From contig NZ_JAQWSS010000011.1 of NCBI RefSeq assembly GCF_029243085.1, forward strand, positions 1 through 59,774: a stretch of 59,774 nt of DNA. The letters run 5' to 3'. The notes below the pieces were generated by a model. That model was not told the DNA's origin. It did not search any database and worked only from the letters and a program-made list of their open reading frames with translations. Made by a program: the position numbers and the translations under genes. The DNA is from Candidatus Thioglobus sp. GTDB taxonomy: Bacteria; Pseudomonadota; Gammaproteobacteria; PS1; Pseudothioglobaceae. Shown here piece after piece: positions 666 through 47,481 of this stretch. Each line of letters opens with the position of its first letter. The stretch's first letter is position 1.

Positions 666-1542
666 ACCCTAATGAAGCTAAGGCGCGCTTGTCATCTGAC
701 CAGCCGGTAGAAACTTTAACCCATAATTTAAGGAATACTTTTCTATCTAAAAAACCTTCAATGCTTTGACGAGCTTCGGTGCCAATGAGTTTTAACATTT
801 CGCCTTTATTACCAATTACGATATTTTTTTGTGAAGCTTTATCAACAAAAATCCTAGCGGAAATTCTTTGCATATTGCCGTCTAACTCGTACTGTTCAAT
901 CTCAACTGTTAAGTCATAAGGTAATTCATCGGCCAAATGGCGCATCAACTTCTCACGAATAAATTCAGCCACCACAAATTTTTCAGATCGATCAGTAATA
1001 AAATCTGGATCAAAAATCATTTCTTGCTCTGGCAAATGTTTTAAGATTAATGCTCTTAAAGCAGCCGTATCTTTCTTGCTAAAAGCTGACAATGGAAACA
1101 TGTCAGTAGCCTGATACTTTTGTCCGACTTTTTCTAAAAATGGCAATACTTCTTGCGGTGTTTTTAACTTGTCAACTTTATTAATACACAAAATTACCGG
1201 CACATCAACTTGTGACACATGCTCCAATACTCGCGAATCTTCCTTAGTCCATTTGCCCGATTCAACCAACCAAAGAATCATATCAACATCTTTCATGCTG
1301 GAGCTTGCTGCTCGATTCATATAAGAATTAATGGCTTTTTTATTGCCCATATGGATACCGGGCGTATCCACAAATACCATTTGATAATTATCACGAGTAT
1401 CAATCGCATGAATACGATGGCGTGTGGTTTGTGGACGGTGTGAAGTGATTGACAGCTTTTGCCCAATCAACTCGTTAATAAGGGTAGATTTGCCCACATT
1501 AGGGCGTCCAATAACGGCAATAAATCCTGATTGAAAACTCAT
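658..1542 (-). CDS. era: GTPase Era
   Basis: GRPNVGKS, DTPG and NKVD G-motifs, C-terminal KH domain. Confidence 0.98.
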   Translation of the reverse strand: MSFQSGFIAVIGRPNVGKSTLINELIGQKLSITSHRPQTTRHRIHAIDTRDNYQMVFVDTPGIHMGNKKAINSYMNRAASSSMKDVDMILWLVESGKWTKEDSRVLEHVSQVDVPVILCINKVDKLKTPQEVLPFLEKVGQKYQATDMFPLSAFSKKDTAALRALILKHLPEQEMIFDPDFITDRSEKFVVAEFIREKLMRHLADELPYDLTVEIEQYELDGNMQRISARIFVDKASQKNIVIGNKGEMLKLIGTEARQSIEGFLDRKVFLKLWVKVSTGWSDDKRALASLGYD

Positions 1543-2204
1543 AAGGCGATTAATTTATCTAATAAAATTTGAGCACAAGACTGCTCTGCTCTTTTAATAC
1601 TTTTGGCTGATTGCTCAATCTGCATGGCTTGATCTTGCAAAACACATTTCACACTAAACACGGCGTTATGGTCCTTACCAACTGTTTTAACCAGCTCATA
1701 GCTTGGCAAGGTATTGCCACGCTTTTGTAAGTACTCTTGTAATTGGGTTTTAGGATCCTTAAGGGAATCGTTCGGATTAATATCATCTAACAAGTCACGA
1801 TATAAATCTAAAATAACCCTATTAACTGTTTCAAAATCCGAATCTAAGAATACCGCACCAAATACCGCTTCCACTGCGTCTGCTTGGATAGATTCACGTC
1901 GATAACCACCACTCTTTAATTCGCCTGGACCTAAAATAAGTATGTCAGATAATTCAAGCTCTCCAGCAATCTGTGCCAATGTTTGTCCTCTAACTAAGTG
2001 AGATCGCAGTCGAGATAATTTACCTTCATCGACATGGTCAAAGCGCTTATAAAGCTCACGAGAAATCACCACCCCTAAAATACTATCACCTAAAAATTCT
2101 AAACGCTCGTTATTATTCTTACCCATAGAGCGATGAGTAAGTGCCAACTTAAGTAAAGCAATATCTTTAAATTGATAATTAATTTTTTGCTGTAATTTAT
2201 CCAT
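1539..2204 (-). CDS. rnc: Ribonuclease III
   Basis: NERLEFLGDS signature and dsRBD (DPKTQLQEYLQ). Confidence 0.98.
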   Translation of the reverse strand: MDKLQQKINYQFKDIALLKLALTHRSMGKNNNERLEFLGDSILGVVISRELYKRFDHVDEGKLSRLRSHLVRGQTLAQIAGELELSDILILGPGELKSGGYRRESIQADAVEAVFGAVFLDSDFETVNRVILDLYRDLLDDINPNDSLKDPKTQLQEYLQKRGNTLPSYELVKTVGKDHNAVFSVKCVLQDQAMQIEQSAKSIKRAEQSCAQILLDKLIAL

Positions 2205-2236: not shown

Positions 2237-2259
2237 TTTATAATTAGCGCTATTATAAA
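2237..2259. promoter_or_regulatory. Putative bidirectional promoter (overlapping -10 boxes) between rnc and cas6-like gene
   Basis: Near-palindrome TTTATAAT-TAGCGCT-ATTATAAA with TATAAT on + (2239-2244) and on - (2252-2257). Confidence 0.5.
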
Positions 2260-2277: not shown

Positions 2278-2949
2278 ATGTTTTGGCAAGAAGATATTAA
2301 AGAAGAACATTTTACGCTTCCTGACGATGTGCAAGATGCTGTGTTCAATATTCATTCTAAAGTTTTACCGATTGATCATGCTTATATACTCTCACAAGCA
2401 CTACTATCTGAACTACCCTGGCTGAGTGAAGTTAATGCTGGTATTCACGATATTAGTGTGGCTGATGGCAATGGCTGGGAACAAGACCACGAGTCTGGCT
2501 TTTATTACCCCTCTAAACGATCAAAATTAAGCATACGCATCCCTAAAGAAAAACTGGGCGATATTCAGTCACTGTTGGGAAAAACGCTCGATTTAGGCGA
2601 ATATCAAGTTAAGATTGTAAAAATACTAGAACCCAAACTAATGAGCGACATGCAAATCGTATTTGCTAAGTACGTGGCTTGTGATGAAAACGCCAGCGAA
2701 GAGGATTTTTTGCAAACTTCTTTTGATCAACTACAAGCACTCGGCATTCATCCCAAAAAAATGATGGCCGGCCTGGAAAGAAAAATCACCACCCCTGACG
2801 GCATTATTCACACACGCTCTTTGATGGTGGCTGACTTACGAAAATCAGAATCTGTCAAACTACAAGAGCAAGGTATTGGTGAACATCGTTTACTGGGTTG
2901 TGGTTTGTTTGTGCCGCAAAAAGGCATTGAAAGTGTCGATGCAGTTTAA
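2278..2949 (+). CDS. cas6: Orphan Cas6/Cmx6-like (type I-MYXAN family) RAMP endoribonuclease
   Basis: N-terminal LPIDHAY motif and C-terminal Gly-rich loop QGIGEHRLLGCGLFVP typical of Cas6; 223 aa. Confidence 0.8.
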   Translation: MFWQEDIKEEHFTLPDDVQDAVFNIHSKVLPIDHAYILSQALLSELPWLSEVNAGIHDISVADGNGWEQDHESGFYYPSKRSKLSIRIPKEKLGDIQSLLGKTLDLGEYQVKIVKILEPKLMSDMQIVFAKYVACDENASEEDFLQTSFDQLQALGIHPKKMMAGLERKITTPDGIIHTRSLMVADLRKSESVKLQEQGIGEHRLLGCGLFVPQKGIESVDAV

Positions 2950-3003
2950 CAAGAAACACAATCTTGCATTAAGCTCACTTTAGTATTACAATCAAATCAT
3001 CTA

Positions 3004-3033
3004 TCAACATATTCACTGGTCAACATATTCACT
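3004..3033 (+). repeat. Tandem 14-bp direct repeat (16-bp period) just upstream of soxW-like RBS
   Basis: TCAACATATTCACT at 3004-3017 and 3020-3033, followed by AGGGAGG. Confidence 0.85.
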
Positions 3034-3043
3034 AGGGAGGGGT

Positions 3044-4075
3044 ATGCGAATTTTATTTCTAATTGTTTCTTTATTGTTCTTTCAGCCTTCACTTGCAGCG
3101 CCTGAGGTTAAAGAAGGCGACTACTTTGGCGCCAAAGTTGTTGACGTATTGCCTGACTGGTTTAAAACCACATTCATGGATTTTTCTGAAGACTTAGAAG
3201 AGGCTACCGATGAAAATAAGCATGTGATGATTTACTTCCACCAGAACGGCTGCCCTTATTGTGCAAAACTGGTGGAAGATAACTTTAGCGATGAGGCCAT
3301 TATTGCCAAATTACAAAAAGATTTTGATGTCATTGAAACCAACATGTGGGGTGACAGAGATTTGGTTGATTGGACCGGTAAAGAGTTTAGCGAAAAAGAA
3401 TTTTCAGCCTTTATGAAAGTACAATTTACCCCTACCATCCTATTCTTAAACTCTAAAGGTAAAATCGTACTTCGACTAAACGGTTATCAATCCATCGATA
3501 AAATGCACGCCACGCTTGATTACATTTCTAAAAAAACTTACTTTAATCAATCTTATGCAAGCTATATTAACAGCCTAAAAAAAGACAAATCTGGCACGCT
3601 TAACGCTCACCCTATTTTCGAATCTGGCCCGCATATGTTGTCACGTAGTGAACGCTTTCCAGCGCATAACTATTTAGCAGTTTTCTTTGAAGAGCCTAAT
3701 TGTCCTGAGTGTGATGTTTTTCACCAAACACTGATGCAGCTTGATCAAACCAAAGATCTATTTAAATCAATGCAGGTAGTGCAGCTCAATGCCTTGTCAG
3801 ACGAAAAACTCATCACCCCATCAGGTAAACGTACAACCGCATCACAGTGGTATGACGACTTAAAACTTACCTATAAACCAGCCGTTGTTTTCTTTGACAA
3901 ACAAGGAAAAGAAATTATTCGCAAAGACGCTTTCTTTAAAGAATACCACTTCACTGGCATTATTGAATATGTCGCCACCGAAGGCTATAAGCACCAATCA
4001 AACTTCCAACGTTACCTTGAAGAGCGTTCAGATAAGCTTCGCGCTAAAGGTGTTACGGTTGACATTTGGAAATAG
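3044..4075 (+). CDS. Periplasmic SoxW-family protein with two thioredoxin folds
   Basis: Signal peptide; CPYC and CPEC motifs; LPDWFK..FMDF and FTPT cis-Pro segments. Confidence 0.75.
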   Translation: MRILFLIVSLLFFQPSLAAPEVKEGDYFGAKVVDVLPDWFKTTFMDFSEDLEEATDENKHVMIYFHQNGCPYCAKLVEDNFSDEAIIAKLQKDFDVIETNMWGDRDLVDWTGKEFSEKEFSAFMKVQFTPTILFLNSKGKIVLRLNGYQSIDKMHATLDYISKKTYFNQSYASYINSLKKDKSGTLNAHPIFESGPHMLSRSERFPAHNYLAVFFEEPNCPECDVFHQTLMQLDQTKDLFKSMQVVQLNALSDEKLITPSGKRTTASQWYDDLKLTYKPAVVFFDKQGKEIIRKDAFFKEYHFTGIIEYVATEGYKHQSNFQRYLEERSDKLRAKGVTVDIWK

Positions 4076-4092
4076 TCGTACTTAATAAAAAA

Positions 4093-4422
4093 CTATACCT
4101 TCTTCACAAACTCAGATTTAAGCTTCATGGCACCGTGCCCAGGGATTTTGCAGTCAATGTTGTGATCGCCTTCACATAGGCGAATGTTTTTAACTTTAGT
4201 ACCAACTTTAACGGCATTCGAAGTGCCTTTGATTTTAAGATCTTTAATCACACTTACCGTGTCACCATCTACAAGCACATTGCCGTTAGCATCTTTAACC
4301 ACTTCTTCTTGATCAATAAGATCATCCGCTGAGAATTCATAAGCACATTCTGGACACATCAGAAGGTTGCCATCTTCATACACATATTCAGAATTACATT
4401 TTGGGCAATTAGGTAAACTCAT
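4093..4422 (-). CDS. yjdM: Zinc-ribbon protein YjdM/PhnA family
   Basis: CPKC..CPEC ribbon; KDANG..L.DGD..KDLKIKG; LKSEFVKK. Confidence 0.92.
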
Positions 4423-4425
4423 TAG

Positions 4426-5280
4426 TTAAACCGTAAATGGATACTTAACAGGATCATGATGCTCATAACCAACCAGCTCAAAATCATCCATGGTTACCCA
4501 AGTTTCTAGATCTTCAAGGGTTTTAATTTTGGGATTAATTTTTAATGATGGTAGAGGTAATGGCTCGCGGTCAACTTGTTCGTTTTTAAAGATTTCCACT
4601 TGGTTTTCATACAAGTGCACATTGGATAAATGATGGCGCATTTTTTTGGCTTTTTTGCCCGTAATCTGTGCGGTAATTAATAATAAAAATGCTACTTGAA
4701 AGTGATTAAACGGCTGACCCAATGCATAGTCACTACTACGTTGATAACTCTCTAAATATAGATCATCACCCAACAAATTAAAGTGATGGGTATGCATGCA
4801 CGCCGGCAAGCAAGCACGATGAATCAGATTGGGGTGATTAAAGGTCATGATCTCACGACGATCATCCACACCATTGGATAAATCCGTTACAATTTTTTTG
4901 TATTGATCCAGTGGCTCATCATCTTCAATCCCTGGAAAGGCACGCCCTATGACACCATAACACATGCCCATATCATCCTCACCTTTGCGGTGTGGGTTAT
5001 CAAGCCATGCTTGGTTATCATTGGCATTGGCATTCCAAGTATTACAGCCTATTGCTCTAAACTGTGCGGCATTATCGTAGCCACGAATATAGCCCAACAT
5101 TTCAGCAATAGCTGATTTCCAGAACAGCTTTTTGGTGGTAATAACGGGTACAGTGCCATCACTTAGATCATGTTCAAAAGTCGCGCCAATAATGGCCAAT
5201 GTTTTTTGCCCAGTACGTGCATTAGATAACCACACACCTTCGTCTAAAATTCGCTTACCAATATCTATGTATGCTTTCAT
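4426..5280 (-). CDS. thyA: Thymidylate synthase
   Basis: LPAC catalytic Cys, YQRS.D...G.PFN, HLY motifs; downstream of lgt. Confidence 0.95.
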   Translation of the reverse strand: MKAYIDIGKRILDEGVWLSNARTGQKTLAIIGATFEHDLSDGTVPVITTKKLFWKSAIAEMLGYIRGYDNAAQFRAIGCNTWNANANDNQAWLDNPHRKGEDDMGMCYGVIGRAFPGIEDDEPLDQYKKIVTDLSNGVDDRREIMTFNHPNLIHRACLPACMHTHHFNLLGDDLYLESYQRSSDYALGQPFNHFQVAFLLLITAQITGKKAKKMRHHLSNVHLYENQVEIFKNEQVDREPLPLPSLKINPKIKTLEDLETWVTMDDFELVGYEHHDPVKYPFTV

Positions 5281-6050
5281 GCTTGTTGTTTATTTGATTT
5301 GTAAAATAAATAAATGCCAAAAATAATCATTGGCAAACTTAATAACTGCCCCATGGTTAACCAATCAAAAGCTAAATAACCTAGCTGTACATCTGGCACT
5401 CGGACGAATTCAATTATAAATCTAAACAAGCCGTAAAAAATCAAAAATAAAGCCGAAACTGACATTAAAGGGCGTGGCTTACTACTAAACACCCAAAGAA
5501 TAATAAACAGTACCAGGCCTTCTAAAAAAGCCTCATACAATTGTGAGGGATAACGACTCACGCCTTGCTCTTGAATATACATACCTAATGGGCTGGTAGT
5601 AACCTTACCCCAAAGCTCACCATTGATAAAATTACCCATTCTGCCAAAACCTAGCCCCAATGGAACTAGTGGCGCAACAAAATCCATCGTAGCAAAAAAA
5701 GTTTTATCGTATTTACGATTAAATAAAACCATCGCCAACAGTACACCTAAAAAGCCACCATGGAATGACATGCCACCGCCCTGAATAGCAAAAATTGACA
5801 ATGGATCAGATAAAAAATTAGGTAAGTTATAAAACAACATGTATCCGATTCGGCCACCAAGCACAACGCCGAGTGCACCATAGAAAATCATATCTTCTGT
5901 TTGCTGTGTGTTCCAATCAGGCAGTTGTTTGGCGCGAGAATTGGCCAATAAATAAGCGGCTAAAAAAGCCATTAGATACATTAGCCCGTACCAGTAGATT
6001 TGTACAAAACCTAAATCTAGGGCAATAGGATTAATATCAGGGTAAATCAT
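5277..6050 (-). CDS. lgt: Prolipoprotein diacylglyceryl transferase
   Basis: WYG, GGMSFHGG, GR.GNFINGELWG, PSQLYE. Confidence 0.97.
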   Translation of the reverse strand: MIYPDINPIALDLGFVQIYWYGLMYLMAFLAAYLLANSRAKQLPDWNTQQTEDMIFYGALGVVLGGRIGYMLFYNLPNFLSDPLSIFAIQGGGMSFHGGFLGVLLAMVLFNRKYDKTFFATMDFVAPLVPLGLGFGRMGNFINGELWGKVTTSPLGMYIQEQGVSRYPSQLYEAFLEGLVLFIILWVFSSKPRPLMSVSALFLIFYGLFRFIIEFVRVPDVQLGYLAFDWLTMGQLLSLPMIIFGIYLFYKSNKQQA

Positions 6051-7463: not shown

Positions 7464-7540
7464 TGGTGCGCTCGAGGTGATTTGAACACCCGACATTTGG
7501 CTTCGGAGGCCAATACTCTATCCAGCTGAGCTACGAGCGC
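7464..7540 (-). tRNA. tRNA-Arg(CCG)
   Basis: GCGCTCGTAGCTCAGCTGGATAGAG..TTGGC CTCCGAA GCCAA..GTTCAAATC..CGAGCGCACCA cloverleaf, 77 nt. Confidence 0.97.
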
Positions 7541-12552: not shown

Positions 12553-12879
12553 ATGGCATTAGCTGATTTAGAAAGAGACGATCATGGTTACTTAGTTGAC
12601 CTTAACGCATGGAATGAAGATATCGCTGCAGAATTTGCAGAAGAGGAAGGTGTTAACCTGACTGACGAAAGTTTTAAATTAATTAACTTCTTGCGTGATG
12701 AGTACATCAATAACAACGCTAACCAGCCAAATGAGCGCAACATGGTTAAAGGCTTGAAAGGCGATTGGGATGGTAAATTAACCACTAAAGAGTTATACAC
12801 TTTATTCCCTAAAGGTCCTGCTAAACAAGCTGGAAAGATTGCAGGTTTGCCAGAGACAAAACGTAAAGGCGGCTACTAG
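12553..12879 (+). CDS. DsrC/TusE-family protein lacking cysteines (RspA-type)
   Basis: D.HGYL....W, LY.LFP.GPAKQA.KIAGLP; ends KRKGGY with no Cys anywhere. Confidence 0.88.
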   Translation: MALADLERDDHGYLVDLNAWNEDIAAEFAEEEGVNLTDESFKLINFLRDEYINNNANQPNERNMVKGLKGDWDGKLTTKELYTLFPKGPAKQAGKIAGLPETKRKGGY

Positions 12880-47316: not shown

Positions 47317-47393
<77 letters not shown>

Positions 47394-47405: not shown

Positions 47406-47481
47406 TGGTGGGCGATACAAGACTTGAACTTGTGACATTCGCCTTGTAAGGGCGACGCTCTACCAACTGAGCTAATCGCCC
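47406..47481 (-). tRNA. tRNA-Val(TAC)
   Basis: GGGCGATTAGCTCAG..TCGCC CTTACAA GGCGA..GTTCAAGTC..ACCA. Confidence 0.97.

Follow-up and report, generated by a model that had tools for sequence, protein, structure and literature searches.

A Cas6-fold protein outside CRISPR-Cas that accompanies the reverse dsr genes of gammaproteobacterial sulfur oxidisers

What does a Cas6 protein do where no CRISPR system is seen? The question is raised by a stretch of 59,774 nucleotides from Candidatus Thioglobus sp. (contig NZ_JAQWSS010000011.1, assembly GCF_029243085.1), referred to below as the window, in which a gene on the plus strand (2278..2949) encodes a Cas6/Cmx6-fold protein of 223 residues. A preliminary description of this DNA had seen an intact protein with Cas6 hallmarks, and had proposed that it is a domesticated Cas6 that binds or cuts host RNAs, perhaps sulfur-oxidation transcripts, and not an immune protein. 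Profile and structure searches, a tree and gene neighbourhoods across sulfur oxidisers bear out the domestication and a tie to sulfur oxidation: the protein belongs to a dsr-linked branch of the Cas6 family, separate from CRISPR-linked Cmx6, and its presence follows that of reverse dsrA.

The open reading frame is intact, and its product matched PF09559 (E 1.6e-47, 162.4 bits against a cut-off of 26.7) and TIGR02807 (Cas6/Cmx6; 105.4 bits against a cut-off of 98.85), a profile whose comment reportedly mentions an orphan member in Thiobacillus denitrificans. The sequence DHAY is found at residues 33–36 and GIGEHRLLGCGLF at residues 199–211. The AlphaFold model, built with 120 aligned sequences (pLDDT, the predicted local distance difference test, 92.8), contains two RAMP/ferredoxin-like domains and a C-terminal glycine-rich loop, which is also conserved in the alignment. 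The top structural match to the model was the Cas6 protein 8FCJ_B (Z 24.1, root-mean-square deviation 2.0, 195 residues, 25% identity), followed by other Cas6 proteins, and Foldseek agreed. A wide fold search gave 17 chains at Z ≥ 8, and the matches listed were CRISPR RNA-binding proteins and one spliceosome chain. The predicted fold is thus that of Cas6, and the 223-residue protein is a member of the Cas6 family that is not part of a CRISPR-Cas system. The homologues that carry names come from Ca. Thioglobus, Ruthia, Vesicomyosocius and mussel symbionts, so that the host is a sulfur oxidiser of the SUP05/Thioglobaceae type.

The link to reverse Dsr was examined in three samples. Among 122 genomes of the family, with dsrA called at E ≤ 1e-30 and fragments included, 70 had both Cas6 and dsrA, 5 only Cas6, 3 only dsrA and 44 neither; in genus g12 both were missing from all 43 genomes. 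In an even draw of 401 gammaproteobacterial genomes from more than 200 families, the corresponding numbers were 120, 6, 5 and 270, so that Cas6 is present in 120 of the 125 dsrA-positive genomes. In 93 of the 120, cas6 lies within 5 kb of dsrA and is divergent from it in every one of the 93; in 4 the two genes are far apart on one contig, and in 23 they are on different contigs. The six genomes with Cas6 only comprise two with true CRISPR operons containing Cmx6 (G390 and G140), three whose dsr-type gene set lies at a contig end or close to one (G231, G260, G379) and one with dsrC-M-K at a contig start (G005). The third sample, a draw of 401 genomes from the phylum, was used for dsrA-positive genomes outside Gammaproteobacteria: Cas6 was found in 5/5 dsrA-positive genomes of the class and in 0/42 outside it, nor was it found in five of the latter when they were re-searched with the branch's own alignment. 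Within the sampled genomes the gene is restricted to Gammaproteobacteria, and since 42 dsrA-positive genomes outside the class were found without it, it is accessory and not a core enzyme of reverse Dsr. In Thioglobaceae cas6 co-occurs with dsrA and is unlinked to it. The gene is single copy and is kept even in symbiont genomes of 1 Mb. It is clear that this Cas6 branch tracks reverse dsrA, independently of cas1.

The absence of a CRISPR system was examined by a k-mer chain scan of the window, the assembly and the relatives' loci. Neither the window nor the 1.16-Mb mixed assembly gave an array; in scans of the same kind, 4 of the 11 loci that hold CRISPR-type Cmx6 had arrays, and none of the 158 dsr-type loci did. 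In the mixed assembly we found no cas1, no cas3 over the cut-off and no Cas7/DevR. The operon of cas3, cas8/cmx8, cas7 and cas5 is not present at the window gene, whose neighbours are rnc, era, a thioredoxin gene and yjdM, and no such cluster recurs among 60 dsr-linked loci (L052–L111), which were fetched from the 93 for the analysis of gene order. True cas operons surround Cmx6 at L112, L113, L119 and L120 and on five plasmids, and type I-B/I-MYXAN repeats were seen at L112, L113, L135 and L137. The earlier statement that no cas gene or array is seen in the 60 kb stands, and no cognate type I operon was found in the mixed assembly. A 14-nucleotide duplication at 3004–3033 was considered as an array and rejected; the sequence is repeated only locally, in two copies, and occurs once in those relatives whose spacer is fully assembled.

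The assembly itself (98.7% complete, 3.8% contaminated) is a mixed bin of at least two organisms, the contigs concerned being C120, C58 and C20. C58 and C20 carry a second set of the window genes (71–72% identity), and the second cas6, on C58, was rejected as a paralogue; it is the copy of a co-binned relative. The window contig is nearer to genus g18 (82–86%) than to genus g1, to which the bin is assigned. Because the assembly is mixed, results for the organism's own genome may describe a relative. This gap is covered by the family data: in g18, cas1 is found in 0/12 genomes and this Cas6 in 10/12, and 14 of 23 single-contig Cas6-positive genomes gave no cas1 match. Over the whole family sample, cas1 exceeded the cut-off in 22 of 75 Cas6-positive genomes.

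To place the protein within the family, 74 dsr-type sequences were aligned with nine comparison sequences, eight of them from cas operons and one a plasmid orphan. In a quick tree with a midpoint root, which gives no direction of descent, the dsr-type sequences did not group with CRISPR-linked Cmx6 and were separated from the nine with an SH-aLRT (Shimodaira–Hasegawa-like approximate likelihood ratio test) value of 100. Both groups have D20, D33-H34, R87, L99-G101, R131, Q196 and the glycine loop, whereas W3, H57, N65-G66-W67, R81, K161, R180-S181 and H/Q214-K215 are specific to the dsr branch. Residues of the type that binds nucleic acid are widely kept in the dsr-type sequences (of 74: R81 74, R87 74, R/K131 71, K/R161 74, R180 67, R204 57, K/R215 74). 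The pair Asp33-His34 (2374..2379, plus strand) is common to CRISPR Cmx6; the second position is His in 71/74 dsr-type and 9/9 comparison sequences, and Asn in the solved Cas6 8FCJ. By analogy to other Cas6 enzymes, His34 is the putative catalytic residue. As far as the text of PMC11096372 was available, it names no catalytic residues for the Cas6b of Synechocystis. The Asn65-Gly66-Trp67 loop (NGW; 2470..2478, plus strand) is, according to the alignment, the signature of the gammaproteobacterial dsr-linked branch (N in 72, G in 74 and W in 74 of the 74), with the Trp column gapped in all nine comparison sequences; the loop is absent from three dsr-linked Cas6 proteins (L235–L237). The glycine-rich loop G199–F211 is followed by a branch-specific P-(H/Q)-K motif at residues 213–215 (together 2872..2922, plus strand), which these three retain as PHK.

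The gene is under purifying selection, with a median dN/dS of 0.091 in 44 pairs within the family, compared with 0.053 for rnc. Contigs of RNA library X2 span 2306–2952 without differences; their depth is low and DNA carry-over is possible, and they are not counted as evidence. A search of a phage collection with Cas6 gave no match. A separate observation concerns plasmid pGMOR1 of Gloeobacter morelensis (NZ_CP063846.1, L136), where genes for a PAPS-reductase-family protein and a cupin come after an annotated Cmx6 that forms a long branch in the tree (2974–5546). In the 6.6 kb fetched, none of the neighbours is annotated as a cas gene, and this is possibly a second, independent use of Cmx6 outside CRISPR.

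At the 60 dsr-linked loci cas6 belongs to a small gene set. Reading away from dsrA, it is preceded by a gene for a TauD-like dioxygenase (50/60) and a gene for a 63-residue protein (53/60) and followed by a DsrC paralogue ending in RKGGY (53/60). The statement in the preliminary description that Cmx6-type cas6 genes stand beside DsrC/TusE-family genes in sulfur oxidisers was therefore correct. The operon may also hold a gene for a 237-residue TPR-like protein or one for a 72-residue protein, which are nearly mutually exclusive (27 loci each, both in 2, neither in 4). Neither protein belongs to a Pfam or NCBIfam family; for the 237-residue protein the Atlas gave TPR-like leads, all below 0.9. 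For the 63-residue protein the Atlas gave only automatic 'sulfur relay protein DsrC' names and no Pfam family, and a fold search gave nothing clear (best Z 4.2). Three further genomes (L235–L237), perhaps of Burkholderiales, have dsrA, then a divergent cas6, then a DsrC gene ending in KGGY. We thus showed that the ancestral position of cas6 is divergent from dsrA, in the order tauD-like gene, 63-residue gene, (TPR-like gene), cas6, Cys-less DsrC. In five genomes from other classes there is no Cas6, but the tauD-like gene (5), the 63-residue gene (4) and the RKGGY-DsrC gene (4) are present. Because they keep the set without it, Cas6 seems to have joined a set that already existed. The members of the set are dispersed in Thioglobaceae but retained, and cas6 has been relocated beside rnc; in the assembly studied here the tauD-like, 63-residue and TPR-like genes are on contig C16. 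The tauD-like gene was found in symbiont G059, whereas searches of G001 and of three g12 genomes did not find it. In the g12 genome G018 (locus L268), dsrC-dsrM-dsrK are retained beside a glutamate-synthase-like gene, and dsrA, Cas6, RKGGY-DsrC and tauD-like genes were not found.

The DsrC paralogue of the window (12553..12879, plus strand; TIGR03342) is the orthologue of the gene directly after cas6 in the ancestral operon. It ends in RKGGY and lacks the C-terminal cysteines of a redox-active DsrC. The same was found at the dsr loci: in 50 of 54 paralogues co-oriented with cas6 the last 15 residues are free of Cys, and DsrC proteins of the dsr strand had two Cys in 60 of 61. The near-invariant basic tail of the Cys-less form, ending in RKGGY, is also present in four of five dsr genomes outside the class (L249–L252). 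This paralogue, which presumably corresponds to the protein named RspA, is a candidate nucleic-acid-binding regulator.

Upstream of dsrA, 54 of the 60 loci contain the palindrome TATCCC-N4-GGGATA at 12 bits or more, compared with 0–1 of 60 in ten shuffled sets; the matrix was built from 53 of the 54 loci. In 21 loci it is followed 53–56 nucleotides later by a TAGACT hexamer, and a second, weaker site falls between the two. Out of sample, the assembly gave 13 hits. The best five (C41:13073, C19:5142, C72:15003, C72:13659 and C27:5820) precede dsrA, DsrC-like, aprM-like and sat-like genes or lie between PFK-like and FBPase-like genes, the names being recognised from sequence. The palindrome is likely to be the operator of a dimeric activator of sulfur oxidation; we take it to resemble the 7-2-7 sites of NarL.

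The reading that we prefer, at roughly even chances, is that the Cas6-fold protein regulates dsr expression by binding, and possibly cutting, RNA, and that it probably does so alongside the Cys-less DsrC. It is suggested by the listed fold relatives, which bind RNA, and by the invariant residues, which are mostly Arg, Lys and His together with the glycine loop. It is also suggested by the closest genomic partner, a redox-dead DsrC with a basic tail, and by the fact that Cas6 is dispensable for reverse Dsr outside the class. According to this proposal, the protein would have left CRISPR and been kept as a single-copy companion of the reverse-Dsr genes. Its conserved arginines and glycine loop may still bind a short RNA hairpin; the remodelled pocket (His34, His57, His60, His214-Lys215 and the NGW loop) would recognise a new host RNA, and this recognition would tune the levels of dsr transcripts. 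A more specific version, held tentatively and at somewhat less than even chances, is that a CRISPR crRNA (CRISPR RNA) nuclease was captured once by an ancestor of the sulfur-oxidising Gammaproteobacteria and now processes or guards dsr mRNA together with the Cys-less DsrC, as an unrecognised layer of post-transcriptional control.

Several results weigh against such a regulator. The searches for an RNA target or a cognate repeat gave none. Four cognate-type repeats had no match within 11 mismatches in the assembly, and an Rfam search of seven sources returned tRNAs only. The repeat-core pattern was not enriched in the 60 loci (10 occurrences against 7–8 in shuffled sequence); in the assembly it was mildly enriched (9 against 0–3). 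The spacer between cas6 and dsrC2 showed no sequence in common when judged by eye. A hairpin directly 3' of the dsrC stop codon reaches −12 kcal/mol or lower in 48 of the 60 loci and has a G-run in its 5' arm in 23, the reverse polarity never being seen. It has no conserved loop and is also present in four of five dsr operons of genomes without Cas6; it was rejected as a Cas6 target, not being specific to Cas6 carriers, and probably serves, between dsrABEFHC and dsrMKLJOP, to stabilise the transcript or as a terminator that leaks. Other unfavourable points lie in the protein itself: K136 and R/K203, present in 9/9 CRISPR-type sequences, are lost in the dsr branch, the median net charge of the core is −1 in 65 dsr-type sequences from outside Thioglobaceae versus +6 in the comparison sequences, and the window protein is acidic (net charge −6, pI 5.6). 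Other Thioglobaceae sequences reach a net charge of +11. In addition, the palindrome is absent near the window cas6, as it is from L235–L242, and this cas6 has a predicted housekeeping promoter in common with rnc. Finally, kin are not independent, and the co-occurrence counts overstate the number of events.

The main rival, possible although clearly less probable than the regulator, is that the fold now serves protein or small-molecule chemistry and not RNA. The protein would then be an accessory of the Dsr sulfur relay that binds a metal, a persulfide or a partner, for instance the Cys-less DsrC, the 63-residue protein or the TauD-like dioxygenase. Round the predicted pocket there are newly conserved His and Cys residues (of 74: H57 69, H60 57, H214 59, C164 40, C208 65), W3 and the NGW loop are invariant, and the lost basic residues and neutral-to-acidic charge noted above would also fit. 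The operon partners of cas6 are enzymes and small proteins, and in g12 Cas6 was lost together with dsrAB, while dsrC-M-K persist in G018. However, several arginines and the glycine loop are near-invariant, H60 and H214 are replaced by Ser and Gln in the window protein, and Cas6 was not found in the 42 dsrA-positive genomes outside the class, so that it is not essential to Dsr chemistry.

A role as the DNA-binding regulator of the TATCCC-N4-GGGATA palindrome is improbable. A place between dsrA and the divergent cas6 operon, where 54 of 60 loci have the motif, is common for the site of a divergent regulator, and a 6-bp arm with a 4-nucleotide spacer resembles a Cas6 hairpin. Yet in L235–L237, where cas6 is directly divergent from dsrA, there is no motif at 10 bits or more, and the fold matches RNA-binding proteins, with no helix-turn-helix among the matches listed. 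The fixed spacing to the −10-like hexamer fits a dimeric DNA activator, and the assembly encodes two FixJ/NarL-type regulators. Still less probable is that the protein matures crRNA in the ordinary way, working in trans on incoming elements or on arrays at some other place in the genome: its TIGR02807 score exceeds the equivalog cut-off, the glycine loop and D33-H34 are kept, some carriers have cas1 and metagenome-assembled genomes can miss arrays, but the 14 closed genomes with Cas6 and without cas1, the separate branch, the co-occurrence with dsrA and the 158 loci without an array all speak against it.

In the window cas6 stands between rnc and a thioredoxin gene. The RNase III gene (1539..2204, minus strand), identified by a profile match, is the divergent neighbour across the family (17 of the 18 Thioglobaceae loci L143–L160) and is probably the site to which cas6 was relocated, not a partner. 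Between the two genes, a near-palindrome with two back-to-back TATAAT boxes (2237..2259), of which a similar element is found in relatives, is a predicted bidirectional promoter that would drive cas6 one way and rnc-era the other. In those family loci that were viewed, cas6 has no obvious Shine–Dalgarno sequence 5' of it. Rfam matched nothing in the window but three tRNA genes on the minus strand (7467–7540, 47320–47393 and 47409–47481).

On the other side of cas6 a co-oriented gene (3044..4075, plus strand; PF13098) encodes a double-thioredoxin protein of 343 residues. The preliminary description had called it SoxW-like, a name that was not confirmed: no SoxW family matched, and the protein gave only generic thioredoxin families and, in the PDB, DsbC. 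It had also placed cas6 in a sulfur-gene context; the co-oriented thioredoxin is there and a link to sulfur oxidation exists, but the link is to reverse Dsr and not to the thioredoxin. The thioredoxin gene has its own predicted sigma-70-type promoter, TTGCAT-N17-TACAAT (2964..2992, plus strand), conserved in relatives as TTG-N20-TACAAT in 29 of 33 loci and as TACAAT in 33/33, although a consensus scanner did not list the site. In the 1.0-Mb genome G059 a thioredoxin remnant with five stop codons (C1:594701–594901) lies directly 3' of an intact cas6. Because of the separate promoter, this decay and the lack of a recurring thioredoxin cluster in the 60 dsr-linked loci, the thioredoxin is an incidental neighbour. 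That the two proteins form a functional unit is the least probable of all the explanations: the genes are adjacent and co-oriented in 14 of the 18 Thioglobaceae loci and the thioredoxin was likewise not found in three g12 genomes, but besides the points just given they are not adjacent in L117, L124 and L127–L130, and the hydrophobic N-terminus of the thioredoxin suggests export.

In oxygen-minimum zones, vents, sediments and animal symbioses it is reverse Dsr that drives sulfur oxidation, and our literature search found little on its regulation. The analysis gives a nearly universal companion gene of gammaproteobacterial reverse Dsr, the small gene set to which it belongs and a candidate operator. 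Where genomes of SUP05, Ruthia and Vesicomyosocius carry the annotation 'type I-MYXAN cas6', it is no sign of CRISPR immunity. The protein would clearly exemplify the exaptation of a Cas protein for energy metabolism and, if the captured nuclease is real, a major pathway of the sulfur cycle would have a new layer of control, one that even clam-type symbionts of 1 Mb have kept. Full-text literature searches found no account of a dsr-linked Cas6, although subscription papers and supplements beyond their scope may list the gene.

Among known systems, the accessory genes of reverse Dsr, including the DsrC/TusE/RspA family, share the genomic home of this Cas6, as far as the available text of PMC8477390 and PMC3368242 describes them. 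The word cas6 is absent from the main text of both, and in the available part of PMC3368242 the role of the additional DsrC-family genes of Allochromatium vinosum is said to remain to be established. With the type I-B (I-MYXAN) Cas6/Cmx6 proteins (TIGR02807/PF09559; 8FCJ_B and 8FCU_B in the Cascade of a type I-B CRISPR-associated transposon), the window protein shares the profile, the predicted fold and the PxD-H and GxGxxRxxGCG motifs; it differs from them in having no cas operon or array, in its separate branch, in the loss of K136 and R/K203, in the P-H-K motif and in tracking dsrA. The Cas6b of Synechocystis sp. PCC 6714 (plasmid pSYLB) is of the same family, with 27.5% identity over 87% of the query. 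Unlike the window protein, it is encoded in a cas6-cas3-cmx8-cas7-cas5 operon and, according to the part of PMC11096372 available, stays on the 3' hairpin of the crRNA in Cascade.

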